Shown here: positions 1,934 to 15,677 of the stretch, in pieces
Layout: every line of letters begins with the position of its first letter
Position numbering within the stretch: position 1 is the stretch's first letter
NCBI GenBank assembly: GCA_037444445.1
Contig: JBBIMK010000012.1
Coordinates: forward strand, 1-18,300
Source of the DNA: a bacterium
Lineage (GTDB): Bacteria; UBP7; UBA6624; JBBIMK01
DNA: 18,300 nt
Direction: 5' to 3'
Notes under the pieces: model-generated
Seen by the model: only the letters and a program-made list of their open reading frames with translations
Databases searched by the model: none
Told to the model about the DNA's origin: nothing
Program-made: the position numbers and the translations under genes

Positions 1934-4012
1934 ATGAAGGTTTTTCTTCGTGAGGCGAAGGCGGCGCTGGTTCATCCAGTTACGGTAGTGGCGTGGATAC
2001 TTTTTTTGGCGGTGGAAGCCTGGGGCTTACGCACCTGGGCGCCGAGGGATTATCGTATCATCGGCGTGTTTTCTGGCACCTTCTACCTTTCTTTCTTCGC
2101 CGCTCTCACCCTGTTCCTCCTGCTGAGGCGGGACGAACGATTCCGCACCGATGACCTGGTGAGGAACGCTACCTTATCTTCAGGCGCTCTTTTCCTCCTG
2201 CGCTATCTCTCCCTTCTGATGGTTTATGGGGTTCTCTTTCTCATCTTGCCTTCGGCAATATGGCTTGTTCAGGATGTTCAAGTCCTATGGCCGCTGACAC
2301 TTCTACTTTTCCTGCTGGCTATGCCGGGTTTCATTTTCCTCACCGTCCTTTCTGCTATTTTTTCCCGGTTTATTCCCGGGCTTTTTGGAATTCCGCTCAT
2401 TGTAGTATTCTGGATATTTCCGTTTATGGGGGTTGTGCTACCGCCGGCGTTTGCGATATTCTTCCCGTATAAGTTAATGAAGAGTTCTGCTGTATTTGGC
2501 TTCGGATTTCAGGACCCTGCATTGGTCGCCGATGCAGCTGGAGGGTTGATTCTCATTGCCATCCTCGTCTCTGTCCTCCTGTTTTTAACGGGGTTGGAAA
2601 CCCATCATCGCTATCCCTATATCCTTCCTGCCGGTTTCCTTCTTCTGCTGAGTTTGTTTTATGGTTACGCTCTTTTCAGTCGCATCGGGAGGAACACGGG
2701 GTCTGCGCTGAATATGCTTTCTATTATGGGCATCACCCCATTTTCTTCCGCCGAGCCCCAGCCCTGCTTGCTGGCGAACTCCGAGTTATCCTTACGGGAG
2801 GAGAGAGGAATCATTTTCGCCCGGGTCACAGCGAATTTCAAAAGTGAAAAAGAAACCACCTGCCTTCTTGCTTTACCGGAGCAAGCGGTAGAACCTGCCC
2901 TGACGCTGAATGGAAAGCCTCTGTCATTGAAGAAAGGGGAAAACTTTCTGACCGCAAAAGTGGAGAAAGGGAGTGAGGGGGCGGTAACGGCAACCTATCG
3001 TCTTCCGCCGTATCTACTGGCACGCATGTCCGCTCTTGGAGTTCAGTATTCCCTCGGCTATGGGGGTGCTTACACCCGCTTCAGCCTTTCCGATGTGGGA
3101 CTGCAAGCAGGGACGAGAACCGGGAGCCTTCTTCCAGCGGAGGAAACGATGGTGCTGATGATGGGGCATTCAGGAGAGAACCTGACTGCCGACGGAGAGT
3201 GTCATAGCGTTTCCGATGGATTGTCCTGCCTTCTGAAGGGCCAAAATCCTATGGTGATGAGTTATCTGCCTCCACTGGAGGTGGCGAGAGAAGGGGTTGC
3301 TAACGGTGAGGCGGGCGGGGTTTCCTTCTCCATCGCCCTCATCCACGGAGGCACCCTACCCCACCCGGAATGGTGGAAAAAATCGGTCTCCATCGCCTCC
3401 TCTATGCTTCAGGCTTTAGAGATTCCGCAGGATATTCAGGTGGTGGAGGCTTACACGCCATTGCTTCGGGCTGTTGCAGGCACGGGCATCGTCCCGCCGG
3501 AAACCCTGATTCAATGGGCGAACTCCAGTGAGGAGGAGGCGGTATTAGGATTCTGCGCCACCGTGTTCTCCACCGTTGTGGGCACCCGCTCGTTTGGTGC
3601 AGGCGCTTCTTCCGCTCTCTCGGATGAAATTGCCCTCCTCACCGCTTTCCTCACCGCCTTAGAAGCAGGTGGAATTCCGGAAGAAAAACTCCGAGAAGCC
3701 ATTCGCAAGCAGGATGAAAACTGGGCAATGAGAATGGTTCTCCAGAATCCTGAACTTAAGAAGAAGCGACAGAACTTCTACGAACTGTTAGCGGAATACA
3801 AACAGCACCCTGAAGAATTGAAGAGAAGGTTGAAGGAAGTGTACGCAGACTTGCGGACTTCCTCTCAACCGAGGTTTCGTATGACCTCCGCCTCTGACCC
3901 GTATGTGGAATACCTTCTGGGTAACACTGAGAAAATAGAGAAGCGGGAGGAATCCACTGGCGGTTCCTGGAAAGTGGAGAGTGGGGGGATGAGAATAGAG
4001 TGGAAAGAGTGA
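1934..4012 (+). CDS. polytopic membrane protein (ABC-2-permease-like N-terminal half) with a large C-terminal domain of about 430 aa and unknown function
   Basis: 692-aa ORF with an RBS. The first ~260 aa contain about 7-8 hydrophobic helices. The remainder is soluble-looking and ends in a charged Lys/Glu-rich tail. No HExxH, Walker or other catalytic motif found. Confidence 0.8.
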   Translation: MKVFLREAKAALVHPVTVVAWILFLAVEAWGLRTWAPRDYRIIGVFSGTFYLSFFAALTLFLLLRRDERFRTDDLVRNATLSSGALFLLRYLSLLMVYGVLFLILPSAIWLVQDVQVLWPLTLLLFLLAMPGFIFLTVLSAIFSRFIPGLFGIPLIVVFWIFPFMGVVLPPAFAIFFPYKLMKSSAVFGFGFQDPALVADAAGGLILIAILVSVLLFLTGLETHHRYPYILPAGFLLLLSLFYGYALFSRIGRNTGSALNMLSIMGITPFSSAEPQPCLLANSELSLREERGIIFARVTANFKSEKETTCLLALPEQAVEPALTLNGKPLSLKKGENFLTAKVEKGSEGAVTATYRLPPYLLARMSALGVQYSLGYGGAYTRFSLSDVGLQAGTRTGSLLPAEETMVLMMGHSGENLTADGECHSVSDGLSCLLKGQNPMVMSYLPPLEVAREGVANGEAGGVSFSIALIHGGTLPHPEWWKKSVSIASSMLQALEIPQDIQVVEAYTPLLRAVAGTGIVPPETLIQWANSSEEEAVLGFCATVFSTVVGTRSFGAGASSALSDEIALLTAFLTALEAGGIPEEKLREAIRKQDENWAMRMVLQNPELKKKRQNFYELLAEYKQHPEELKRRLKEVYADLRTSSQPRFRMTSASDPYVEYLLGNTEKIEKREESTGGSWKVESGGMRIEWKE

Positions 4013-5096: not shown

Positions 5097-7283
5097 TTAA
5101 TGTTCATTCCTCATGGAGGGGCGGGGAAGGGAAGCCATCGCCGCGCCCAACAGGAGAGCCAGAAGGGCAAGAGCAATGCCGGGGATGAGGAGGCGGGGAA
5201 AGTAGCGAAAGGTTACGGTGTGCTCGCCGGCGGGAATCTGGACGGCACGAAAGAGGTAATCTGCCCGGTAAATTTTAGCGGGCTCGCCATCTACCCATGC
5301 CTTCCACCCGGGGTCGTATACATCGGAAAGGACAAGAAAGCCCTCGGTGGCGGTGCGCACTTTCAGCACGACTTCCTGCGGGTTGTCCTTCTGCCACTCT
5401 ACATTAGAAGAAATCTCTTCACTCTCTTGAAATTCAGGGGGGGATTCTTCCAGAAGCACTTCCCGAGCAGGTTCAAAGCCCAGGGAGAATAATTTCTCCA
5501 GGATATTTCTATCCTTGAATTGAACCTTAGTCAGGGTGACATCAACGGCGGGCGACCATTTGATGACACTTTTTACCGGCTTTTCCACTACGACTTTCCC
5601 CACCACGAAAGCCCTCGGATGGGGGTCCAGATTCCGATAAATCTCCACATACTCATCCTGATACACTTTCACATAATGCTCCACTGCCTCGTTTATAAAA
5701 GGGAAATCCCTTATTTTCGGAAGGATGAGGAGGTCTATACCGAGAAGGTTCAGAATTTCCTGCCGTGTGCGGATTTGGAGTTCATTGCTGAACACCAGAT
5801 ATCGGCGGTAGAGCAAAGTGGTCTGGAAGAAGAAAGCCATCGTGGGGAGTTGATACCGATTCGCCAGGAGGAAGGGAACGATTTCGGTGGGGGTGGGAGA
5901 GCCTTGTTCAGTGCGGATGAAGGGCTGGTATCGGAAGGAGGGGTCCTCAAAGAAGCGGAAGCCTGCCGAAAGAACCCGCCCCCCGGGGATTAGATTCTTC
6001 TGGAGAAATTGGGTTCGGGCAGGGATATTTTCATAATACCCCCGCTCCGTCGTCTGGGTATAATGATAGCCCATCCGTGCCAGGTCCCAGCCCTGAAGAA
6101 ACAGCAAAAGCCAGAAGATAAGCCCTCGCCATCGTGGCGGGTAGCGGGAAAGAAGAAAGGATAGCACATACCCTGCTCCGGCGATGGCAAAAACATCCCA
6201 TAACCAGAGGTAACGCGAAGGATACCTCAACAGGGAATAGGGCGGAATCTTCGCCATATACTGATAGAGGGTGGAGTAAGGACCGAGGGTGAACCAGAGA
6301 GCCAGAAGAGAAAGGGTGATAAATAAGAGGATGGGAGGGCGGATTCTTGCAGGAATAGATTTCATCGTGATACCTGCGAACACGAGGCAGAAAACAGGGA
6401 TCCAGCCGATATATCCTCCCTTCTCATAGAACAGGTTGCCGAAGGCTTTCGGGAAGAGGAGAAGCCGGAAGTGGGAGGGATTGAGGAAGCCCTCATTGAC
6501 CGGAGGGATGAGGGCACGAGCAGATTGAAAGCCGAACTCCATACTGGGTGCCAGTTGCGGGGCGCCGAGGAGAATGGCGAACAGATAGCACAAAACCAGG
6601 CTCCATACAGGCTGGAGGGCTGGCTTCCAGTGGTTGGTTTGAAATAATTCCCACAGGGAAAACGCAAGGGAATAAGCCAGCAATCCGGTTCCACAAATGG
6701 TGAGAGCGATGAAATGTCCGGCGAATATCTGCAGAGTCAGCACCCCCGTCAGCGCCATTAGAAGCCATCGCCTCCTGCTTTCCGCATACAGGTCATACAG
6801 GTAAAGTGTGAGGGGAAAAAAAGCCACCACATGAATCAGGTTGGGGTGGAAGAGGTGGGAAATCATAAAGCCGGAGAACTCAATGGACATAGCGCCCCAG
6901 AGGGCAAGTTCCGGGCTACCGAATCTCCGCCTGAGCCAGAGATAACCGAAAGCGCCGGTGAGAAAATAATGAAACGCCAGCAAACTATGATATAAATAGG
7001 TGAAAGAGGAGAGGGGGAAAAGGGCAAATAAAAGATTCGGGGGGTAGAACACCCCGCCCTGCGATTCCGCTAAAAAAGGATACCCGAGGTAGTAAAATGG
7101 GTTCCAGAAGGGGGGAAACCCCTGATGCAAAGCCCACGCCAGAAACCAGCGCGTGGGATACCCCACGAGAGGCGTATCACCTTCATAAATCACTCGCCCA
7201 TAGAAAAGAGACTCCCGGAAGTAAATCAGGGTTAGCACCAGCAGGAAGAAAAGATAAAGGACTTCCTTTCTCCCTTTCCTCAT
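5097..7283 (-). CDS. YfhO-family / GT-C-fold polytopic membrane protein (putative glycosyltransferase)
   Basis: 728 aa. The N-terminus LFYGRVIYEGDTPLVGYPTRWFLAWALHQGFPPFWNPFYYLGYPFLAESQGGVFYPPNLL matches the YfhO-family pattern as I remember it. More than 10 hydrophobic helices are followed by a soluble region and a C-terminal TM helix. Confidence 0.85.
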   Translation of the reverse strand: MRKGRKEVLYLFFLLVLTLIYFRESLFYGRVIYEGDTPLVGYPTRWFLAWALHQGFPPFWNPFYYLGYPFLAESQGGVFYPPNLLFALFPLSSFTYLYHSLLAFHYFLTGAFGYLWLRRRFGSPELALWGAMSIEFSGFMISHLFHPNLIHVVAFFPLTLYLYDLYAESRRRWLLMALTGVLTLQIFAGHFIALTICGTGLLAYSLAFSLWELFQTNHWKPALQPVWSLVLCYLFAILLGAPQLAPSMEFGFQSARALIPPVNEGFLNPSHFRLLLFPKAFGNLFYEKGGYIGWIPVFCLVFAGITMKSIPARIRPPILLFITLSLLALWFTLGPYSTLYQYMAKIPPYSLLRYPSRYLWLWDVFAIAGAGYVLSFLLSRYPPRWRGLIFWLLLFLQGWDLARMGYHYTQTTERGYYENIPARTQFLQKNLIPGGRVLSAGFRFFEDPSFRYQPFIRTEQGSPTPTEIVPFLLANRYQLPTMAFFFQTTLLYRRYLVFSNELQIRTRQEILNLLGIDLLILPKIRDFPFINEAVEHYVKVYQDEYVEIYRNLDPHPRAFVVGKVVVEKPVKSVIKWSPAVDVTLTKVQFKDRNILEKLFSLGFEPAREVLLEESPPEFQESEEISSNVEWQKDNPQEVVLKVRTATEGFLVLSDVYDPGWKAWVDGEPAKIYRADYLFRAVQIPAGEHTVTFRYFPRLLIPGIALALLALLLGAAMASLPRPSMRNEH

Positions 7284-7474
7284 CTTCTATATTTTACTAC
7301 CAGCATAAAAAATTCGTAATTCCCATTCACCGGTTTCCAGTTTCGGGTTGCAAGTTCAAGATACAAGCCAGGAACCCGCCCGGGGTGGCGAGGGTCTGGC
7401 GTTCCCTCCTTTTCTTCTTCCCTTTCATAATCTTCGCACTCCGGATGCTGGCTTATGCCTTATGAAGTATTCCC

Positions 7475-7503
7475 TTGTAAGTTTTCGTGAAAAGGCATAT
7501 CCT
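7475..7503 (+). promoter_or_regulatory. possible promoter of the acyl-CoA dehydrogenase gene
   Basis: TTGTAA (7475-7480), 17-nt spacer, TATCCT (7498-7503). It lies about 37 nt upstream of the ATG at 7540. Confidence 0.3.
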
Positions 7504-7539
7504 ATTTGTATGGACGATGAAGGAGAAGGAGGTGAAGAG

Positions 7540-8682
7540 ATGGATATTTTATTGAGCAAGGAGAATCATGAGTATCGGGAGAAGGCTCGGGCGATAGCGG
7601 AGAAGGTGGTGAAGCCCATAGCGGCAGAATGCGACCGGGAATCCAAATATCCCTGGCCTGTGATGGAGGCGCTAAAGGAGGCAGGGCTGTCCGGGGCGTG
7701 GATTCCGAAGGAATATGGAGGTGCGGGCGCCGGGCTTCTCAACCTCTGCATCATTGTAGAGGAACTTTCCCGGGTTGACGGAGGGACTGGTGTGGCTTAT
7801 GCGGTGAACGCCCTCGGCTCTTTCCCTATCATCCTGGGCGGAACGGAGGAGCAGAAGAAGAGATGGCTTCCCCCGATTGCCTCTGGCGAGAAGCGGATTG
7901 CCTATGCCCTGAGTGAAAAAGAAGCGGGTTCGGATGCCGGGAGTCTGAAAGCCCGAGCCACGAAGGATGGGAATGCCTATATCATACACGGGGACAAGAA
8001 ATGGACCACGGGGGCGGAAGTGTCGGAAATCTTCACCGTCTTCGCCTCCACGAACCCGGAAATGGGCGTGCGGGGCATCTCTGCCTTCGTGGTGGAACGG
8101 GGCACGCCGGGATTCCGCATCGGGAAGTTAGAGGACAAAATGGGCATCCGGTGTGTGCCCGTGAATGAGACCCACTTTGATAACTGCCGGGTGCCGGCAG
8201 AAAATCTTTTAGGTGGGCAGGAAGGGCGTGGGTTCATCCATGCCATGCAAACTTTAGATATGGCAAGACCCGGGGTGGCGGCGCAAGCCCTTGGCCTGGC
8301 ACAGGGCGCCTACGAACTCGCCCTCTCCTGGGCAAAGGAAAGAAAACAGTTCGGCCAACCCATCAGCCAGTTTCAGGCTATCTCCTTCCTCCTGTCGGAT
8401 ATGGCCACGCGAATAGAAGCCGCCCGCCAGTTAATCTACGCCGTGGCGAAAGCGGTGGATAAGGGCGAGAAAAACTTCACCCGCTACTCCGCCATGACCA
8501 AAGTTTATGCCTCCGATGTGGCTATGTGGGTAGCCACCAACGCAGTTCAAATCTTCGGCGGTTATGGATACATCAAAGATTACCCCGTAGAACGCTTTAT
8601 GCGCGATGCGAAAATCACTCAGATTTACGAGGGAACCAACCAGATACAGCGCCTCGTCATCTCCCGTTCTATCCTGAAATAA
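7540..8682 (+). CDS. acyl-CoA dehydrogenase (short/butyryl-CoA dehydrogenase-like, 380 aa)
   Basis: ACAD signatures are present: N-terminal MDILLSKENHEYREKARAIAEKVV, AYALSEKEAGSDAGS, and QIFGGYGYIKDYPVERFMRDAKITQIYEGTNQIQRLVISR with the catalytic Glu. The start is placed at ATG 7540, 5 nt after GGAGGTG. This gives the typical ~380-aa length, unlike the longest ORF from 7348. Confidence 0.9.
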   Translation: MDILLSKENHEYREKARAIAEKVVKPIAAECDRESKYPWPVMEALKEAGLSGAWIPKEYGGAGAGLLNLCIIVEELSRVDGGTGVAYAVNALGSFPIILGGTEEQKKRWLPPIASGEKRIAYALSEKEAGSDAGSLKARATKDGNAYIIHGDKKWTTGAEVSEIFTVFASTNPEMGVRGISAFVVERGTPGFRIGKLEDKMGIRCVPVNETHFDNCRVPAENLLGGQEGRGFIHAMQTLDMARPGVAAQALGLAQGAYELALSWAKERKQFGQPISQFQAISFLLSDMATRIEAARQLIYAVAKAVDKGEKNFTRYSAMTKVYASDVAMWVATNAVQIFGGYGYIKDYPVERFMRDAKITQIYEGTNQIQRLVISRSILK

Positions 8683-8692
8683 CCTTCTTTCA

Positions 8693-9040
8693 TCAGGGGT
8701 TTCCTGAGAGGGCGGTTTTATTCCCCGCCTGTAAAAGGGCAGACCGAATCCATTCATCCGGCGGGATGCCCTGAAATCCTTTAGGGGTCCGAAAAATCCG
8801 GCACTTTAAGCCATACTGCATATCCCGGCTGGCGTTCGGGTCCACATCCTTCCCATTGATGCGGATGGTGGGCGAGCCGATGAACCGCCAGGTTGCCGCT
8901 GACGCTTCATCCTCCACCCGTATGCGCCGGATAGGAGCCTGGATGCCCAGTTCCCTCATCAGTTCCTTCAGCCTCGCCTCCGCCTTTTCGTGATTTGGAC
9001 ATCCATCAAAATATAACAGTTCAATCTCCATCTCCATCAC
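8693..9040 (-). CDS. small thioredoxin-fold protein with single-Cys GCPN motif
   Basis: The pattern LLYFDGCPNHEKAEARLKELM...IRRIRVEDE...FIGSPTIRINGKDV...GLKCRIFRTPKG...IPPDEWIRSAL is typical of small proteins annotated as thioredoxin family. AAGGAGG directly abuts the GTG at 9040, so the real start is more likely ATG 9037 or ATG 9031. Confidence 0.8.
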   Translation of the reverse strand: MMEMEIELLYFDGCPNHEKAEARLKELMRELGIQAPIRRIRVEDEASAATWRFIGSPTIRINGKDVDPNASRDMQYGLKCRIFRTPKGFQGIPPDEWIRSALLQAGNKTALSGNP

Positions 9041-9049
9041 CCTCCTTTC

Positions 9050-9079
9050 ATTATAATCCCTACCTCCCTCCCCTGTCCA
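9050..9079 (-). promoter_or_regulatory. promoter of the thioredoxin-fold gene
   Basis: On the minus strand: TGGACA (9079-9074), 18-nt spacer, perfect TATAAT (9055-9050), immediately before the GAAAGGAGG RBS. Confidence 0.4.
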
Positions 9080-9164
9080 ACCAGCGACGTGATGAATGAA
9101 TGTCGTGCTGAACGAAGGAAATCGTGAATCGGGTCACGAACCAAACACGGTCAAAAATAACTGA

Positions 9165-9190
9165 ACTTTTGGTGCCTGACCCCAAAAGGT
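9165..9190. repeat. copy 1 of a 22-nt hairpin-forming intergenic repeat (TTTGGTGCCTGACCCCAAAAGG)
   Basis: 9168-9189 is identical to 18277-18298. TTTTGG and CCAAAA arms flank the loop TGCCTGACC. Confidence 0.55.
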
Positions 9191-9202
9191 GTCATTACTT
9201 GG

Positions 9203-9231
9203 TTGACAGATGGGTAATAAACTTCTACGAT
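9203..9231 (+). promoter_or_regulatory. promoter of the small CxxC membrane ORF (and possibly ppdK)
   Basis: Perfect TTGACA (9203-9208), 17-nt spacer, TACGAT (9226-9231). It is followed by AAGGAGGTGG (9241-9250) and ATG 9257. Confidence 0.45.
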
Positions 9232-9256
9232 AGTAAATAGAAGGAGGTGGTAGGCA

Positions 9257-9433
9257 ATGAAATGGTTTCATTGCGATTATGTCGTTGGCATTTTACTGGT
9301 GATATTGGCGTTGATACCCGGGCTTGCCAGCGGCTACAGGTGGATAGGCTTGATAGCAGGGCTTATCCTCATCGGGCATACGGCGATGGGACCTGCCTGC
9401 CCTGTGTGTAAGGTGATGAAGAGCGGTGGATAA
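9257..9433 (+). CDS. 58-aa two-helix membrane protein with C-terminal CPVC motif (DUF2892/YgaP-like appearance), absent from the ORF track
   Basis: My own translation is MKWFHCDYVVGILLVILALIPGLASGYRWIGLIAGLILIGHTAMGPACPVCKVMKSGG-TAA. AAGGAGG lies 9 nt (taggca after the GGTGG extension) before the ATG, and a consensus promoter is upstream. Confidence 0.55.
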   Translation: MKWFHCDYVVGILLVILALIPGLASGYRWIGLIAGLILIGHTAMGPACPVCKVMKSGG

Positions 9434-9546
9434 GGAAAGAGCCAAATAGCCCATAGTATCGGGAACAAGGAGGCGCAGAGAGGGGAGAAAGAAGGGGCAA
9501 AAGTATTCTCAATCCGCACCTGTAAACGGAATAAGAGGATGAAAAG

Positions 9547-12267
9547 ATGAAATGGAGTGTGATGTTAGGGAAAAGTCCTTACTCCTCGTGGGAGGAGAAG
9601 GTTCAATATCTGGGGAGTAAGGGGGCGGGACTGGATGAGATGACGGGATTACATATCCCGGTGCCACCTGGATTTTCCATCATTACGGAAGCCTGCCGAT
9701 ATTATCTGAGGGAAGAACGGGTGCCTCCGGGATTGGAAGAGGAAGTGAATACGCATATTCGGGAGATGGAGCGGGTGAAGAAGCAGAAGCTGGGTGACCC
9801 GAGGAATCCTTTGCTGGTGAGCGTTCGTTCGGGGGCCCCTGTTTCTATGCCCGGGATGATGGACACGATTCTAAACCTGGGGCTGAATCAGGAAATCACC
9901 GAGGGGCTGGCGAAAAAAACTTCCAACCCTCGCTTCGCCTATGACGCCTACCGCCGCTTCCTCCAGATGATGGGAAGAATCGTTCTGCATATCCCTGGGC
10001 CCCTGTTTGAGAAAGAGATGGACCGGGTGAAAGGCAGGCGAAAAACCACCCGGGATGAAGACCTGACAGCGGAGGACTGGCAGGAGATAGCCAGTAGATT
10101 TCTACACTTGATTGAGCACTATACGGGCAGAAAGTTTCCTGAGGACCCGTATGAGCATCTCTGGCTGGCAACACGAGCCATCTTTGAGTCGTGGAACAAC
10201 GAGCGGGCGAAGGCATACCGTCAGATTTACCATGTGTCGGACACGCTGGGAACTGCTGTGAATGTGGTGGCGATGGTGTTTGGGAATCTGGGTCCCCGGT
10301 CGGGAACGGGTGTGGCATTTTCCCGGGACCCATCCACGGGTGAAAAGCGCCTGTATGGCGAGTTTCTTCCCAATGCCCAGGGTGAAGATGTGGTTGCCGG
10401 CACCCGCACTCCCTTTCCCCTTTCTCGCAAGGACTTAACCGACGGCGTTCAATTTTCACTGGAAGATTGGATGCCCTCTGTTTACGCTGAACTGCTGGAT
10501 ATTTCTCAACGATTGGAGGCTCACTTCCACGATGTGCAGGATATGGAATTCACCATTGAGGAGGAGAAGCTGTGGCTACTGCAAACAAGAGCCGGGAAGC
10601 GCACACCGAAAGCCGCCGTGAAGACCGCTGTGGATATGGTTCACGAGAATCTGATTACCCGTCAGGAGGCTATCCTTCGCCAGAAGCCTGAAGATTTTGA
10701 ACTTTTGCTTCATCCCACGGTGGACCCGAAGTATAAAGTGAAGCCCGTAGCCACCGGTATTCCTGCCTCTCCGGGTGTGGCTACTGGCATGGTGGTGTTT
10801 GACTGGCGAGAAGCGGAGCGATTGAAGAAGAATGGTGAATCAGTGATACTGGTTCGGAATGAAACCTCAGCGGATGACATACGGGGGATGGTGGCATCAG
10901 CGGGCATCCTCACCACGAGAGGGGGGAAGACCAGCCACGCTGCGGTGGTGGCGCGGGGGATGGGAAAGCCTGCCGTCGTCGGCGCTGAACAACTCTTCAT
11001 CCACTTTGAGGGCGGGTTCTTTGATGCACCCGGTACCCGCATCCGAAAATATGACATCCTGACGATTGATGGAGGTTCCGGCGCCATCTATCCAGGCGAT
11101 GTTCCCAAAGCCTCTCCTTCCCCCTCTTCCGAAATGGAAGAGTTATTGCAGTGGGCAAATACCTTTCGCTCACTGAAAGTGCTGGCGAATGCGGAAACCC
11201 TTCAGGATGCCCGGGCGGCCCTTCCCGTGGGTGCGGAGGGAATTGGTTTAGCCCGCACCGAACATATGTTCTTCGGCGAGGAACGCATCACTGCTTTCCG
11301 GGAACTCATCCTCCTGGCGCTGCAGGAACGCAGGCTGAGAGAGGTCCGCGACGGTGAGAGCACCCGAAGAGCCATCTATGGGGTTATGGAACGGATACGG
11401 AAAATGCAGAAAGAGGACTTCAAGCAGCTGTTGAGATTGATGGAGGGGCTACCGGTGGTGGTGCGGTTTCTGGACCCGCCCCTGCACGAGTTTCTGCCCA
11501 CCACCGACGATATGATACAACAGCTGGCAGGGCGTCTACGGCTGGATTTTGAATTTGTGCGCTCCTCCATAGAGAACCTGAAAGAAATCAATCCGATGCT
11601 TGGCCACCGGGGAGTTCGCCTTGCCATCACTTTCCCGGAAATCTATCAGGTTCAGATGCAAGCCCTGACGGAATCTGCCTGCGAGCTTTTGAAGGAAGGG
11701 GTTACCGTTCACCCGGAGGTCATGCTTCCTCTTGTGGGATTTGAGCGGGAGCTCACGTGGATACGCCCGCGTCTGGAAGAGATTGTGAAATCCGTGTCGG
11801 AGCGATATGATGTATCCTTAAAAATTCCTATGGGGACGATGATAGAACTTCCCCGAAGCGCCATGACAGCGGGCAGTATTGCCAGATATGTGGATTTCTT
11901 TTCGTTCGGCACCAACGACCTGACGCAGACCACCCTGGGCTTTTCTCGGGATGATTCGGGGAAATTTCTACCCGATTACATTCAGCAGAGGGTTCTGGAT
12001 TTTGACCCCTTTCAGGTGCTGGACCGGGAAGGGGTGGGAAGTCTAATTCAACTGGCAATTCAGCAGGGGAGGGCGGCGAACCCGAGGCTGGAGGTTGGAG
12101 TCTGCGGCGAGCACGGTGGCGACCCATCCTCTATTGAGTTCTTTCAGCAGGTGGGCGTGGATTATGTCAGCGTTTCTCCCTTTCGGGTTCCAGTGGCTCG
12201 TCTGGCGGCGGCCATTGCCGCCCTACGGCAGGCGGGCGCCACATCAGAATCCACCCGCACCGTCTGA
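9547..12267 (+). CDS. ppdK: pyruvate, phosphate dikinase
   Basis: 906 aa. N-terminal ATP-grasp LGSKGAGLDEM...PVPPGFSIITEAC. Phosphohistidine loop TTRGGKTSHAAVVARGMGKPAVVG. PEP/pyruvate domain GLARTEHMFF, FSFGTNDLTQ and CGEHGGDPSSIEF. Confidence 0.95.
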   Translation: MKWSVMLGKSPYSSWEEKVQYLGSKGAGLDEMTGLHIPVPPGFSIITEACRYYLREERVPPGLEEEVNTHIREMERVKKQKLGDPRNPLLVSVRSGAPVSMPGMMDTILNLGLNQEITEGLAKKTSNPRFAYDAYRRFLQMMGRIVLHIPGPLFEKEMDRVKGRRKTTRDEDLTAEDWQEIASRFLHLIEHYTGRKFPEDPYEHLWLATRAIFESWNNERAKAYRQIYHVSDTLGTAVNVVAMVFGNLGPRSGTGVAFSRDPSTGEKRLYGEFLPNAQGEDVVAGTRTPFPLSRKDLTDGVQFSLEDWMPSVYAELLDISQRLEAHFHDVQDMEFTIEEEKLWLLQTRAGKRTPKAAVKTAVDMVHENLITRQEAILRQKPEDFELLLHPTVDPKYKVKPVATGIPASPGVATGMVVFDWREAERLKKNGESVILVRNETSADDIRGMVASAGILTTRGGKTSHAAVVARGMGKPAVVGAEQLFIHFEGGFFDAPGTRIRKYDILTIDGGSGAIYPGDVPKASPSPSSEMEELLQWANTFRSLKVLANAETLQDARAALPVGAEGIGLARTEHMFFGEERITAFRELILLALQERRLREVRDGESTRRAIYGVMERIRKMQKEDFKQLLRLMEGLPVVVRFLDPPLHEFLPTTDDMIQQLAGRLRLDFEFVRSSIENLKEINPMLGHRGVRLAITFPEIYQVQMQALTESACELLKEGVTVHPEVMLPLVGFERELTWIRPRLEEIVKSVSERYDVSLKIPMGTMIELPRSAMTAGSIARYVDFFSFGTNDLTQTTLGFSRDDSGKFLPDYIQQRVLDFDPFQVLDREGVGSLIQLAIQQGRAANPRLEVGVCGEHGGDPSSIEFFQQVGVDYVSVSPFRVPVARLAAAIAALRQAGATSESTRTV

Positions 12268-12301
12268 TAGAGTCCCGTGTATGGCTGACTACTCGCTTTT
12301 T

Positions 12302-13591
12302 CTACAGGGGAGTGCAGAAGTGTTCCATTTCCTTGAGCAGACGGGCAACCTCCGCTTCCGCAAGAGCAGTAACCTGCTGAACGGTTTCCATCTTCCTCTG
12401 CTTATAGTTTTCATAGTGGTCTAACAGGCGAATCGGATTGCCCACATTCACATAGGCGGTTTTCCAGACTTCGGTGCGGAAATCACCGAACACCTCTCTT
12501 TCCAGGCGGTGGAGGGTGTCCAGAAACCGTTCCTGGCAGAGGTTCTCTCGCACATAGCCATCGTAGAGGGCGATGAAATTTAATAACCGAAGGGTATTTT
12601 TAATCAGAACTTTTTTCTCATCCTCCGTAAGAAGGGAAGCGGGGTGGTGGTCAACCCCAGGGTCTCTCGGGAACAACAGAGGCGCGGCGCTGAAAATCAC
12701 CTTCCTCAGGCGAGCCAGCACGGTGGTTTCTTTCTTCTCCACGAACCCGAGACGCGCTTCTAACTGCTTGAGAATGATTTCCTTCAGAATACCGATTCGC
12801 TCGTTTATGCTCTCCTTCGCCTCCGGGGTTCGGGCAAATTCTTCCTCTATCCGGCTGAGAATGGTGATGCCAGCGGTCCGCAGACGCTGATACAATCCTT
12901 CTGTGGAAGTGTCATTTCCAGCCGGCAAGCCGAGAGCAGATTCCAGAGCGGATAACCCCCGAATGATTCGCACCCTGGAATTGAACCGGAACCGGTATTT
13001 AATCGCCACTGGAACAATCAGAATGGCTTCGCCCGGAAGAGCCTTTTCCAGCCGTTCTTGAGCCCGGAAAGCCATGAAAAAAGTGCCTTCCAGGAAAGGT
13101 AAAAGGGTGTCGTTTTGATGATAGGTATGCCCTTCCGGGAAGATGACGATTTTATGAGGACCCTGCGTGAGAAGGGTCAGAGTCGTCTGGATGGAGTCAT
13201 GGTCCACCGTTCCTCTCTGGATAGAGTAGGTGCCCACCCGCTGAAGAATCCAGCCTAAAAATCCATTCCACATATCAAAGAGTTCCCGGGAGGAGACGAA
13301 AAAATACCTGCCAGGGACCCAGCGGGATACCCACCAGAGGATGCCGGGTTCGTAGAGGGTGGTATGATTGGGGGTAAGGATGGCGTGGGCGTTTTTGAGC
13401 GCCCAGAGTCGTCTTCGGCTTCCCGGAGTTAATTTTACAGAAACCAGCCCCGATTTCAGGGTCAACAGTACCGGGCAGAGAAGGGTGGCGAAAAAGGCTA
13501 CCCCGGGGTTATATTTCGGCGGGCAGAAGGCCTTTTTCATCAATGACTTCGCCTCTACCACCATCGGTATCTTCTCCTTCACCCCATTCAT
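12302..13591 (-). CDS. PlsC-domain phospholipid/glycerol acyltransferase family protein (long, GPAT/DHAPAT-like form)
   Basis: Acyltransferase block I is PNHTTLYEPG (an HX4E variant of HX4D). Block III is VIFPEGHTY. A long helical C-terminal extension follows. An alternative start at ATG 13564 follows AAGGAG. Confidence 0.8.
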   Translation of the reverse strand: MNGVKEKIPMVVEAKSLMKKAFCPPKYNPGVAFFATLLCPVLLTLKSGLVSVKLTPGSRRRLWALKNAHAILTPNHTTLYEPGILWWVSRWVPGRYFFVSSRELFDMWNGFLGWILQRVGTYSIQRGTVDHDSIQTTLTLLTQGPHKIVIFPEGHTYHQNDTLLPFLEGTFFMAFRAQERLEKALPGEAILIVPVAIKYRFRFNSRVRIIRGLSALESALGLPAGNDTSTEGLYQRLRTAGITILSRIEEEFARTPEAKESINERIGILKEIILKQLEARLGFVEKKETTVLARLRKVIFSAAPLLFPRDPGVDHHPASLLTEDEKKVLIKNTLRLLNFIALYDGYVRENLCQERFLDTLHRLEREVFGDFRTEVWKTAYVNVGNPIRLLDHYENYKQRKMETVQQVTALAEAEVARLLKEMEHFCTPL

Positions 13592-13635
13592 TCACTGGCT
13601 CACTCAGTCAAATTCTATCAGATTTTCACAAGCAT

Positions 13636-13676: not shown

Positions 13677-14522
13677 ATGAGGAAGATGGGTCTCATTGGC
13701 GGTAGCGGGCTGTATTCGCCGGGAATCGGTGCGGAGAAAGGCAAACGCATTGCTGTGAAAACTCCCTATGGAAGCGTGGAAATGGTTCAATTCCACACCA
13801 GGAATGCAGAGGTCTACTTTTTGAACCGGCACGGGGAAGGGCACCGATATCCTCCCCATTTAATCCCCTATCGGGCGAACCTGTGGGCAATGAAAGAAAT
13901 GGGCGTGGAGCGGATTCTCGCCTTCAGCGCCGTAGGCAGTATCAACCCGAAAATGAAACCTGACCACCTGGTTCTAATTTCTGACTTTATAGATTTCACG
14001 AAAAACAGGCCCTCCTCCTTCTCCGAGGAAGGGAAAGTGATTCATGTGGATGTGAGCCAGGCTTACTGCCCGGAGATTCGGGAGAGCATACGCAAAGCCC
14101 GGGAAATCCTCCGGGAACAGAAGCGAAGCGGGGTTCCGCACCTGCATCTGAAAGGGATTTATGTTTGCACCGAAGGGCCGAGATTTGAAACATCGGCAGA
14201 GATACGAGCCTACCGGCAGTTAGGCGGAGATGTGGTGGGGATGACGGGGGTGCCTGAAGGGGTGCTGGCGCGGGAAGCAGGCATCTGCTACGCCCTCGTG
14301 GCTGTGGTGACCAACCCCGCCGCCGGCATCTCTTCATCCCTTCTCACGCCTCAGGAGGTGAACGAGAAAATGAAAGCCCTCCAGCCTTTTTTGTGGGCTC
14401 TCTTCCTCACCTCTCTTTCCCACCTTCCCCGCCAGCGTTCCTGCGCCTGTGGCACCATCCCGAGCCTGAGCCTCCTCACAGACGGAGAGATTCAGGGGCC
14501 GGGCGAGGAGAGACCAGAGTAG
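13677..14522 (+). CDS. mtnP: S-methyl-5'-thioadenosine phosphorylase
   Basis: MGLIGGSGLY phosphate loop, FLNRHG, CTEGPRFETSAEIRAYRQLGGDVVGMTGVPEGVLAREAGICYA and VTNPAAG. The track start TTG 13671 would sit at the predicted transcription start, so ATG 13677 or ATG 13686 is preferred. Confidence 0.9.
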   Translation: MRKMGLIGGSGLYSPGIGAEKGKRIAVKTPYGSVEMVQFHTRNAEVYFLNRHGEGHRYPPHLIPYRANLWAMKEMGVERILAFSAVGSINPKMKPDHLVLISDFIDFTKNRPSSFSEEGKVIHVDVSQAYCPEIRESIRKAREILREQKRSGVPHLHLKGIYVCTEGPRFETSAEIRAYRQLGGDVVGMTGVPEGVLAREAGICYALVAVVTNPAAGISSSLLTPQEVNEKMKALQPFLWALFLTSLSHLPRQRSCACGTIPSLSLLTDGEIQGPGEERPE

Positions 14523-14694
14523 CCAGTTTGCGGAGATTTTCCGGGTCCGGAAGAGCAATGAGCGTATTGCCGGCGACGATTGCGGAACCCGGCGAAGGGT
14601 TAAAAATCACGGTTCCATCAGGCTTTTTCACACCCACGACGCTGATATTCAGCTCTTTCCTGAGAATAGAATCCTTCAGCGTCTCCTTCCGCCT
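14476..14694 (-). pseudogene. N-terminally truncated TrkA-C (RCK_C) domain remnant, or a start-less mini-ORF
   Basis: My own translation is RRKETLKDSILRKELNISVVGVKKPDGTVIFNPSPGSAIVAGNTLIALPDPENLRKLATLVSPRPAPESLRL-TGA. This fits the TrkA_C pattern (G.tl.el.lr...v.vvai.R.g..i.nP.....l.aGD.L.vlG....l..l). An in-frame TGA lies at 14695-14697, and there is no upstream ATG, GTG or TTG. It overlaps the mtnP 3' end by 47 nt. Confidence 0.4.
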
Positions 14695-14709
14695 TCAAGC
14701 CCCATATAG

Positions 14710-14739
14710 TTGACAAACATTAAGATTCAATGCAATATT
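14710..14739 (+). promoter_or_regulatory. promoter of the tandem-HTH gene
   Basis: Perfect TTGACA (14710-14715), followed 15 nt later by an extended -10-like TGcAATATT (14731-14739). It overlaps the longest-ORF ATG at 14730, which argues for the downstream start at 14766. Confidence 0.45.
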
Positions 14740-14765
14740 TGAAATGGGTAAGGAAGGAATGGAGA

Positions 14766-15677
14766 ATGGGAAAGAAAGAAACTTATGAGGAAGCGCTGGC
14801 TCTCATCCGGCAAGGTGTCTATGATGCGGAAGTAGCCAGAAGAACAGGGTATACTCGGGAGCGCATCCGCCAGTTGCGGGTGCAAATGGGGCTCCCTTTA
14901 TCCTCTCACTATTTCTCCTATGTGGATGCGGTTCTGAAGTATTCCACGGACCAGGAATTTATGAAGAAGTTGAGGGCTTACTGGGAGGATGAGAGATGTT
15001 ACAATGACAAACAGATTGCTCGCTTTCTCCAGGTGTCTCCCGAGCTCATTGGTCTCCTGCGGGAGAAGTTCAAGATTCCTGCGCATTGGAAGCGGGTAGA
15101 GGCTCTTCTGTTGCCCTATCTGGAAAAAAGAATGGATACTGAATTGGCTCATCAATTCGGCCTATCCGTTATTAGGGTTGCAGGGGCGCGCAAACGCCTG
15201 GGCATCCCCAGTTATCGGGCCCGGAAAATGCAATTCCTCTCCAGCAAAGCTTTTCGGGATGCTCTGGGGAAAATGTATGATAAAGAAGTGGCTCAACAAT
15301 TTGGCGTCCATGTAAACACCGTGGTCCGATATCGCAAACGCCTGGGCATCCCCTCTTTTCATCCGGCGATGAGAAAAAGGGAGTTAATGTCACAGAAAGC
15401 CTTCCTGGAAGCACTGGGAAAGATGCTGGACAGGGCAGTTGCTCGTCAGTTTGGCGTCAGCAAGTCCGCTGTCCAGAGATATCGGACTCGTCTGGGCATC
15501 CCTCCTGTTTATCCGAGGAGAAGAACAGAGGAGTTAATGTCGCAGAAAGCCTTCCTGGAAGCACTGGGAAAGATGCTGGACAGGGCAGTTGCTCGTCAGT
15601 TTGGCGTCAGCGTGTCCACTGTTCAGAAATATCGGACTCGTCTGGGTATCCCGGCGTATAAATCACAGAAAAAGTGA
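14766..15677 (+). CDS. protein made of six tandem helix-turn-helix modules (GcrA / sigma-70 region 4-like), function unknown
   Basis: The six HTH modules are DAEVARRTGYTRERIRQLRVQMGLP, DKQIARFLQVSPELIGLLREKFKIP, DTELAHQFGLSVIRVAGARKRLGIP, DKEVAQQFGVHVNTVVRYRKRLGIP, DRAVARQFGVSKSAVQRYRTRLGIP and DRAVARQFGVSVSTVQKYRTRLGIP. The start at ATG 14766 is 8 nt after AGGAAGG. The longest ORF begins at 14730. Confidence 0.85.
   Translation: MGKKETYEEALALIRQGVYDAEVARRTGYTRERIRQLRVQMGLPLSSHYFSYVDAVLKYSTDQEFMKKLRAYWEDERCYNDKQIARFLQVSPELIGLLREKFKIPAHWKRVEALLLPYLEKRMDTELAHQFGLSVIRVAGARKRLGIPSYRARKMQFLSSKAFRDALGKMYDKEVAQQFGVHVNTVVRYRKRLGIPSFHPAMRKRELMSQKAFLEALGKMLDRAVARQFGVSKSAVQRYRTRLGIPPVYPRRRTEELMSQKAFLEALGKMLDRAVARQFGVSVSTVQKYRTRLGIPAYKSQKK
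15087..15677 (+). repeat. intragenic tandem repeat, four units of 144, 150, 150 and 147 bp
   Basis: The units start at 15087, 15231, 15381 and 15531. The last two differ at 1 of their first 80 nt and 7 of their first 120 nt by hand alignment. The caaacgcctgggcatcccc string recurs at 15191 and 15335. Confidence 0.85.

Follow-up and report, generated by a model that had tools for sequence, protein, structure and literature searches.

Homing endonucleases need long and specific targets, and in sigma-70 the TRERIRQ residues of region 4.2 (r4.2) read the -35 hexamer. To our knowledge, DNA readers that combine several helix-turn-helix (HTH) units are known only with few modules, namely two in AraC and three each in Cbp1 and Myb. 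It was demonstrated experimentally that the three linked HTHs of Cbp1 align 5' to 3' along a 24-bp repeat of the clustered regularly interspaced short palindromic repeats (CRISPR) (PMC10883916). In the crystal structure of GcrA with DNA, the alpha2-alpha3 HTH occupies the major groove and a single domain of 45 amino acids (aa) contacts all seven bases of the site (PMC5887438). Here we analyzed an 18,300-bp stretch of bacterial DNA (contig JBBIMK010000012.1 of assembly GCA_037444445.1; hereafter the window), which encodes on its plus strand a 303-aa protein that consists of six tandem HTH modules (14766..15677, stop codon included). The explanation that we favor, with a probability of roughly 0.55, is that this window protein is a sequence-directed, multivalent binder of an extended composite DNA site in which each module has one subsite.

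Six tandem HTH modules in a stand-alone protein

A motif that marks the end of each module, [RK]x[RQK][LMF][GK][IL]P, was present six times in the window protein (at aa 38, 99, 142, 190, 240 and 290). The spacings between successive motifs were 61, 43, 48, 50 and 50 aa, and the six segments could be aligned with one another (alignment A1). To keep the module count free of circularity, we used a hidden Markov model (HMM) made from 107 modules of other proteins, with both the window protein and its ortholog left out. This independent HMM found six domains in the window protein with scores of 19.2, 8.9, 30.5, 46.0, 50.8 and 51.7 bits for modules 1 to 6, respectively, and a total of 214 bits. The division of 14766-15677 into six modules, which an initial annotation had made by eye, was thus confirmed.

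All modules are encoded on the plus strand. Module 1 (aa 1-47; 14766..14906) carries the recognition helix YTRERIRQLRV. Module 2 (aa 48-108; 14907..15089), which had the weakest score, contains the divergent HTH QVSPELIGLLREKFKIP and has two added N-terminal helices (aa 48-74) in front of it. Module 3 (aa 109-151; 15090..15218) is followed by module 4 (aa 152-199; 15219..15362) with the RpoN-box-like helix HVNTVVRYRKRLGIP. The corresponding helices are SKSAVQRYRTRLGIP in module 5 (aa 200-249; 15363..15512) and SVSTVQKYRTRLGIP in module 6 (aa 250-303; 15513..15674), the latter being a recent duplicate of module 5. The residue pattern that the initial annotation gave for the whole module matched literally in modules 1, 5 and 6, while modules 2, 3 and 4 each departed from it at one or two positions, which makes it an approximate pattern. 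The linkers that it listed (PSYRARKMQ, PSFHPAMRKRE and PPVYPRRRTEE), the KAFxxALGKM helices and the core strings were all present.

The protein is strongly basic, with an isoelectric point (pI) of 10.4, 62 lysine and arginine residues versus 29 aspartate and glutamate residues and a net charge of about +33. It contains one cysteine. Searches of Pfam, NCBIfam, PHROGs and PADLOC returned matches of the HTH type only and no second domain, as expected from the earlier description of a stand-alone array with no sensor, enzymatic or other domain.

Variation on the predicted recognition helix

We computed the variability of the module from 116 modules. Hardly any variation was seen in the scaffold (W, LG, D, A, G, V, R and LGIP), and the most variable columns of helix 3 were those of K233, S234, Q237, R238, T241 and R242 in module 5. 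In the hhalign alignment, five of these six positions mapped to N34, I37, G38, H41 and R42 of GcrA, for which base contacts have been reported from the crystal structure of GcrA with DNA (PMC5887438).

The most recent modules offered a second view of this variation. The four C-terminal modules are direct repeats at the DNA level, spaced 144, 150 and 150 nt apart (repeat families D1-D3), and Tandem Repeats Finder placed a 150-bp tandem duplication under modules 5 and 6 (15380..15652, plus strand; 1.8 copies, 94% matches, score 497). Over a core of 41 codons the two modules differed by four synonymous and three non-synonymous changes. All three of the latter (K233V, A235T and R238K) fell on helix 3, and the other amino-acid changes between the two modules were in linkers. 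Taken together, the coincidence of the variable positions with the GcrA base contacts, the helix-3 changes between modules 5 and 6 and the use of the same arrays by phage homing endonucleases (described below) argue for sequence-directed reading. Moreover, the differentiation of the recognition helices between modules favors sequence-directed over non-specific binding.

In the mechanism that we propose, each module of ~45-50 aa would be a tri-helical HTH of the type seen in the GcrA DNA-binding domain (DBD), the sigma-54 RpoN domain and FapR. Helix 3 of each module would enter the major groove and read a subsite of ~6-7 bp. Since the linkers between modules are short, basic and flexible, the chain would follow a single extended composite site, or several clustered sites, of several tens of bp in total. 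The GIY-YIG homing endonucleases of phages presumably read DNA likewise, with arrays of the same module. Module 1 would be a sigma-70 r4.2-like head and modules 4-6 RpoN-box-like heads. Because the recognition helices are unlike between modules, the target is expected to be asymmetric, and it would probably end in two or three similar direct-repeat subsites for modules 4-6. Most likely, the protein would control one or a few loci, its own promoter possibly among them, at the level of transcription or of DNA architecture. DNA binding itself, the geometry of one module per subsite and a regulatory role are all what we infer.

Relationship of the module to described HTH domains

We compared a 46-column profile of the family module (A5; an RpoN/GcrA/FapR-type module) with individual HTH domains by hhalign. 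The RpoN domain of Aquifex sigma-54 gave 95% over 30 columns, in an alignment that pairs VARRTVAKYREMLGIPSS with VSKSAVQRYRTRLGIPPV, the GcrA DBD gave 92% over 39 of the 46 columns, with the W..E helix 1 included, and the FapR HTH gave 86% over 29 columns. When the six window modules alone were compared with the GcrA DBD, the value was 34%. The sigma-54 RpoN domain (2O8K) was also the top match by profile HMM in the Protein Data Bank (PDB), at a borderline E-value of 0.01, and GcrA was not among the PDB sequence matches of the module profiles or of the window protein.

Several family models recognized the HTH part of the window protein. Pfam HTH_23 matched at 1.6e-15, Sigma70_r4_2 at 29.9 bits (cutoff 25.7) and Sigma54_DBD at 26.8 bits (cutoff 22.8), the last one over profile positions 129-160 only. 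Two other parts of sigma-54, Sigma54_AID and Sigma54_CBD, were absent from the list of 25 Pfam families that matched the window protein. The NCBIfam FapR model NF003359 matched five stretches, reaching 56.3 bits versus a cutoff of 183 and covering profile positions 24-53 only. Module 1 was identical to E. coli sigma-70 r4.2 at 9 of 16 positions. Both have the TRERIRQ heptad, which is also found in RpoS region 4.2 and is kept in the ortholog. RpoS region 4 was the sole PDB sequence match of module 1, at a weak E-value of 0.5.

A few assignments were rejected. Membership in the sigma-70 family was not upheld, since only region-4-type matches were obtained: the family model TIGR02937 scored 17.8 bits versus a cutoff of 42.9, and Sigma70_r2 had no match among the same 25 Pfam families. 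Only the HTH parts of the IS630 and IS21 transposase models were matched (23.1 bits versus 100 and 29.7 bits versus 160, respectively), so that the suggested resemblance to IS30/IS630 transposases came down to generic HTH similarity. A PADLOC match to mad1 did not support a role in defense, as it was a 60-aa HTH summed over the repeats and there were no defense genes nearby. The NCBIfam model NF046037 ('carph-isopro domain-containing protein') passed its cutoff (41.8 bits versus 38, summed over two stretches), but it supplies no more than the name of a domain. Typical members of the array family scored below the cutoff of this model, and our literature search found no paper that uses the name.

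The module had initially been likened to GcrA and to sigma region 4, and the GcrA string cited for this purpose agreed with the PDB sequence of GcrA. At the profile level this likeness was real, as seen from the hhalign value for the GcrA DBD, the Sigma70_r4_2 score and the TRERIRQ heptad. GcrA was not the nearest relative, however, because the sigma-54 RpoN domain gave a higher value and FapR was the best structural match (see below). Judged from these sequence comparisons, 'GcrA/sigma-r4-like' is a reasonable label for the HTH subtype, with RpoN and FapR at least as close.

Predicted structure

AlphaFold2 was run on the full-length protein with a shallow alignment of eight sequences and gave a mean predicted local distance difference test (pLDDT) score of 81.7 and a predicted template modeling (pTM) score of 0.39. 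The model had 21 helices, which is three per module and two extra ones before module 2. The four helices of module 2 (aa 48-61, 63-74, 81-88 and 92-101) were predicted with pLDDT >90, and the linkers at aa 153-155 and 252-256 were of low confidence. As modeled, the arrangement is one of beads on a string, with the modules joined by flexible basic linkers. Module 5 was also predicted singly, from 116 aligned modules, with a pLDDT of 86.3 and helices at positions 2-16, 19-26 and 30-40.

The best PDB fold for the single module was FapR, at template modeling (TM) scores of 0.66-0.69; the operator-bound form of FapR gave a TM score of 0.68 and a root-mean-square deviation of 1.9 A. TrpR, DosR and DeoR came next, and all of the best single-module matches were DNA-binding HTH domains. 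The structure predictions agreed with the view that the modules are HTH folds. The full-length model had no match in the PDB at E<=1e-3 in the fold search, which is as expected for beads on a string, and a whole-protein phmmer search of the PDB gave noise only. When the full-length model was compared with predicted viral structures by Foldseek, 17 matches were found at E<=1e-3 with 150-370 aligned columns. Most of these were uncharacterized, and a few were named endonuclease or D5 protein.

A large family of module arrays on chromosomes, plasmids and phages

We searched 1.84 billion representative proteins with a module profile (A2). The profile matched 10,506 proteins at E<=1e-3, 4,717 at <=1e-10 and 960 at <=1e-30, and the best 150 matches had 5 to 19 matched stretches each. 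In the 32 top-scoring members that were fetched, the modules spanned a median of 96% of the protein and the period peaked at 45-50 aa. The family consensus was W-T-x-E-x-x-x-LLG-[TK]-x-x-D-x-x-[VIL]-A-x-x-LG-[VIL]-S-x-x-x-V-x-x-K-R-x-x-LGIP. The window protein differs from the wider family in helix 1, where KAFLEALGKM stands in place of the W-T and LLGT signature, and in its distinctive modules 1 and 2. On sequence grounds, it is a divergent and rare member of a very large, uncharacterized family of poly-HTH arrays.

Named hosts of the family included Pseudomonas guariconensis, Thermoanaerobaculia and Pirellulaceae. Where members had been given names, these were 'hypothetical protein', 'DNA-binding protein', 'CsgD family' or 'transposase'. 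No dedicated Pfam model matched the family members, and literature searches on tandem HTH repeats, on the RpoN box with tandem repeats, on GcrA-like proteins and on pWW0/DUF1173 found no description of the family. These results bear on two statements in the initial annotation. The architecture had been presented as if it were singular, and this did not hold in view of the 10,506 representatives with the same module and of the up to 19 repeats among the best 150. It had also been said that a described family could not be named for it; relatives turned out to be abundant, yet they are uncharacterized and have no Pfam model of their own. Variation in the number of modules, which had been raised as a point to check, was evident both in these best 150 relatives and in the ortholog.

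Arrays of this kind were frequent on plasmids. A tblastn search of an annotated plasmid collection matched 102 records, 83 of them from Pseudomonas and 57 conjugative. The TOL plasmid pWW0 encodes a 244-aa array of five modules (WP_011005852.1) and pQBR57 encodes another (WP_192963445.1); the plasmid arrays were all annotated as hypothetical. The large Pseudomonas plasmids had two to eight separate array-matching places per record, in blocks of small hypothetical genes. On pQBR57 (L011; pQBR57 249798-250928), one array match was located 2.8 kb from a plasmid mvaT gene and near a gene with a ParB N-domain.

The same modules were also found in phages. Matches in Vibrio phages were annotated as homing endonuclease or GIY-YIG nuclease (tblastn, E 1e-11). 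In the protein of Vibrio phage helene 12B3 (YP_007877424.1), four to five modules, e.g. WNKLLGTDTDKNIAKVVGLSLDVVSSRRKGLQIPPY, come after an N-terminal GIY-YIG domain (Pfam 2.9e-10). Arrays of the module likewise occurred in phage HNH endonucleases. Scans of viral contigs with two further proteins (P0006 and P0046) gave no match.

Two other proteins were seen in distinct settings. A three-module relative with a Cys-rich C-terminus (P0005; L006 5769-8654) is encoded divergently from a cI-like HTH_3 gene and has a phage integrase gene and an excisionase-like HTH_17 gene as its other neighbors; early lytic regulators of prophages occupy this position. A 456-aa protein (P0004; L007 1859-3229) consists of six to seven tandem sigma-54 RpoN DNA-binding domains (TIGR02395 7.9e-57 over six stretches) with no other sigma-54 regions, and its gene adjoins ankyrin-repeat genes. 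With this protein, stand-alone arrays of 'sigma heads' come in a second form.

A single ortholog of the window protein

A word-indexed search of 5.8 billion proteins yielded a sole ortholog (P0002), a 284-aa protein with 49% identity to the window protein. It has five modules because module 6 is absent. Module 1 was the best conserved, at 76% identity, and modules 2-5 were 33-51% identical. No further orthologs were found when the window protein or the two-sequence alignment (A4) was used to scan genomes, metagenomes and viral contigs. The gene of the ortholog (L001) is preceded by genes for a KsgA-type methyltransferase and a protein of no assigned function and followed by genes for M16 peptidases, so that its neighbors are not those of the window gene. 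Its source is a different organism, since the aldo/keto reductase of the latter is only 43% identical to that of the window.

Gene signals and genomic context

An identical 303-aa product (P0001) is on record from a 57,363-bp NCBI contig, and this favors the start codon at 14766 over an upstream ATG at 14730. Upstream of the gene we noted a sigma-70-type promoter-like site, TTGACA-18 nt-AATATT, with a TG before the -10 element (14710..14739, plus strand; 10 of 12 matches), as had been remarked in the initial annotation. The perfect TTGACA is 50 nt upstream of the start codon. The promoter is putative, being only a match to the consensus in a host of unclassified lineage. A purine-rich, probable Shine-Dalgarno-like sequence, AAGGAAGG, was read from the sequence at 14750..14757 (plus strand), 8 nt 5' of the ATG.

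The genes recognized in the window were msrAB, YfhO, acyl-CoA dehydrogenase, PPDK, acyltransferase, MTAP/PNP, the array gene, aldo/keto reductase and ALDH. The immediate neighbors of the array gene, an MTAP/PNP-type phosphorylase and a convergent aldo/keto reductase, are indeed the unrelated metabolic genes that they had been taken for. No mobile-element genes were present in the window, and the G+C content of the array gene (0.47-0.53) was only slightly below that of its neighbors. Neither CRISPR or other repeat arrays nor Rfam families were found in the window. The PPDK had as its closest named relatives proteins from the metagenome-assembled genome 'bacterium JZ-2024 1' (65% identity) and from candidate division WOR-3 (57%), which places the host in an unclassified lineage. 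The 'bacterium JZ-2024 1' relatives showed no synteny with the window.

The possible gene remnant that had been placed next to the array gene is a short minus-strand frame (14479-14700; KDSILRKELNISVVGVKKPDGTVIFNPSPGSAIVAGNTLIALPDPENLRKLATL) with a stop codon just upstream, and the MTAP-like gene overlaps it with its 3' end. A likeness to the C-terminal RCK/TrkA-C domain was noted by eye, but the 53-aa open reading frame (ORF) had no Pfam match. A 13-bp tandem repeat (CTCTCTTCCCCAC, 2.2 copies) is located at 14398-14425, inside the C-terminal extension of the MTAP-like ORF. Elsewhere in the window, a 692-aa ORF (1934-4012, plus strand) matched no Pfam family at E<=0.01 and was alone in its 90% protein cluster.

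A close relative of the window (L002; 85% nucleotide identity over window 5152-13601) ends at the acyltransferase gene, before the array gene. Compared with the window, an insertion separates its acyl-CoA dehydrogenase gene from the PPDK gene (L002 3876-7660 versus window 8682-9547, where the window has ~0.9 kb). The insertion contains a thioredoxin-like gene, a Polbeta nucleotidyltransferase/HepT toxin-antitoxin pair and genes for an N6_N4 methyltransferase and a HinfI-type restriction enzyme. This contig, the only close DNA relative, comes from the Joint Genome Institute (JGI) metagenome 3300010938, a sample that also holds the ortholog.

Discussion

Several observations weigh against our proposal that the window protein reads an extended composite site. 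The 18.3-kb window yielded no DNA target, no periodic motif and no repeat array. The single-module Foldseek E-values were not significant by themselves, which we attribute to a query of only 46 residues. There is one ortholog only, at 49% identity and with different neighbors, so that no conserved genomic context points to a regulated locus. A protein with so much positive charge and with basic linkers could also coat DNA at low specificity, and the binding partner may be RNA or protein instead. Low-specificity coating is the essence of an alternative, suggested in the initial annotation beside a binder of repeat arrays, in which the window protein is a nucleoid-associated, bridging or silencing protein whose six weakly specific heads coat or bridge DNA, for instance AT-rich or foreign DNA. 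Its pI and charge, the multivalency and flexible linkers, and the frequency of relatives on large conjugative Pseudomonas plasmids, including the one at a distance of 2.8 kb from mvaT on pQBR57, would all fit such a role. We nevertheless think it unlikely, because the recognition helices differ by module and vary at the GcrA base contacts, which is a signature of specificity, because homing endonucleases use the same module arrays, and because the tiny ortholog group is unlike the lineage-wide distribution of nucleoid proteins.

The sigma-like features could be taken further, to a chain of sigma-like heads that has no parts for binding RNA polymerase. With the -35-reading type of helix in module 1 and the RpoN-box-like helices in modules 4-6, the protein would occupy promoter elements, among them its own TTGACA, and compete with the holoenzyme. 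The similarity of module 1 to sigma-70 r4.2, with RpoS region 4 as its only PDB sequence match and a heptad that is conserved in the ortholog, speaks for this, as do the RpoN-domain and Sigma54_DBD matches and the perfect TTGACA ahead of the gene. These likenesses are short, however, with weak E-values at the level of the whole database (0.5 for RpoS), and a large number of other HTH families match equally well or better. We consider promoter occlusion very unlikely; it is a special case of sequence-directed binding to an extended site rather than a true alternative to it. A similarly small probability attaches to the view that the gene is a stranded remnant of a mobile element, that is, the array of a homing endonuclease, plasmid or phage gene that has lost its catalytic partner and has no function in the host. 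In its favor are the patchy distribution, the finding of the same module arrays on plasmids, in a prophage-like region and in endonucleases of phages (GIY-YIG and HNH), and the location of the gene, which has unrelated metabolic genes on either side and a possible gene remnant next to it. A remnant would not readily account for an intact ORF with promoter-like and Shine-Dalgarno-like signals, nor for an ortholog that is intact in another organism and context with module 1 at 76% identity. In addition, the flanks hold no remains of a nuclease, integrase or transposase, the G+C content is only slightly below that of the neighbors, and arrays that fill nearly the entire protein are the norm among the top-scoring family members that were fetched.

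With variable positions that coincide with GcrA base contacts, and with homing endonucleases that carry the same arrays, the family is a candidate for the recognition of long DNA sites, possibly in a decipherable manner. It is a rather improbable but attractive idea that the repeat family is a natural modular system of DNA addresses, in which homing endonucleases, plasmids and cells share a decipherable code from module to subsite. If this were true, a module of ~47 aa would read ~6-7 bp through the hypervariable positions of helix 3 (the equivalents of GcrA N34/I37/G38/H41/R42), and arrays of 5-19 modules would spell addresses of tens to >100 bp. Gain or loss of modules together with changes in the recognition helix, as seen between modules 5 and 6, would re-target the protein. 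Such a system would be comparable in principle to zinc-finger or transcription activator-like effector (TALE) arrays, but built of HTHs. What we describe is one bacterial module type that occurs in stand-alone arrays of 5-19 copies; chromosomes, conjugative plasmids and phages encode thousands of such proteins. The practical value of the window gene itself is modest, as it is a rare and rapidly evolving member from an uncultured lineage, and the family as a whole is of higher interest.

The window protein departs from each of its closest described counterparts. Sigma-54 has a region I and a core-binding domain that the window protein lacks (TIGR02395 13.3 bits versus a cutoff of 277). The GcrA DBD of Caulobacter (PDB 5YIV) is alike in being a three-helix bundle of ~45 aa with the layout W..E...L / A..LG / V..K..RLG. 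GcrA, however, has a single such domain, combined with a CCCH zinc domain that interacts with sigma-70 (PMC5887438), whereas the window protein has six modules. The C-terminal CCCH domain is absent from the window protein, whose 303 aa are filled by HTH modules. FapR (PDB 4A0X/4A12) joins one HTH to a malonyl-CoA-sensing thioesterase-like domain, and the latter is again missing from the window protein. The phage homing endonucleases carry a GIY-YIG domain in addition to their modules, while the families listed for the window protein included no GIY-YIG or HNH match. The arrays of the Pseudomonas plasmids pWW0 and pQBR57, and those of the wider family with 5-19 copies at a period of ~47 aa, resemble the window protein in that they consist of tandem modules only. 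Cbp1 and Cbp2 are archaeal and have two or three modules as opposed to six, and Cbp1 acts on CRISPR arrays together with Cren7, whereas the window contains no CRISPR array. Profile matches to Cbp2 (2LVS, 'CRISPR repeat binding protein') were weak (E 0.0011 with A2 and 0.017 with A5), and 2LVS was also, weakly, among the fold matches of the full-length model. The likeness, which is architectural and not proof of homology, is that Cbp1 and Cbp2, as the window protein, are stand-alone proteins made of tandem HTHs only, born by duplication and joined by short linkers.

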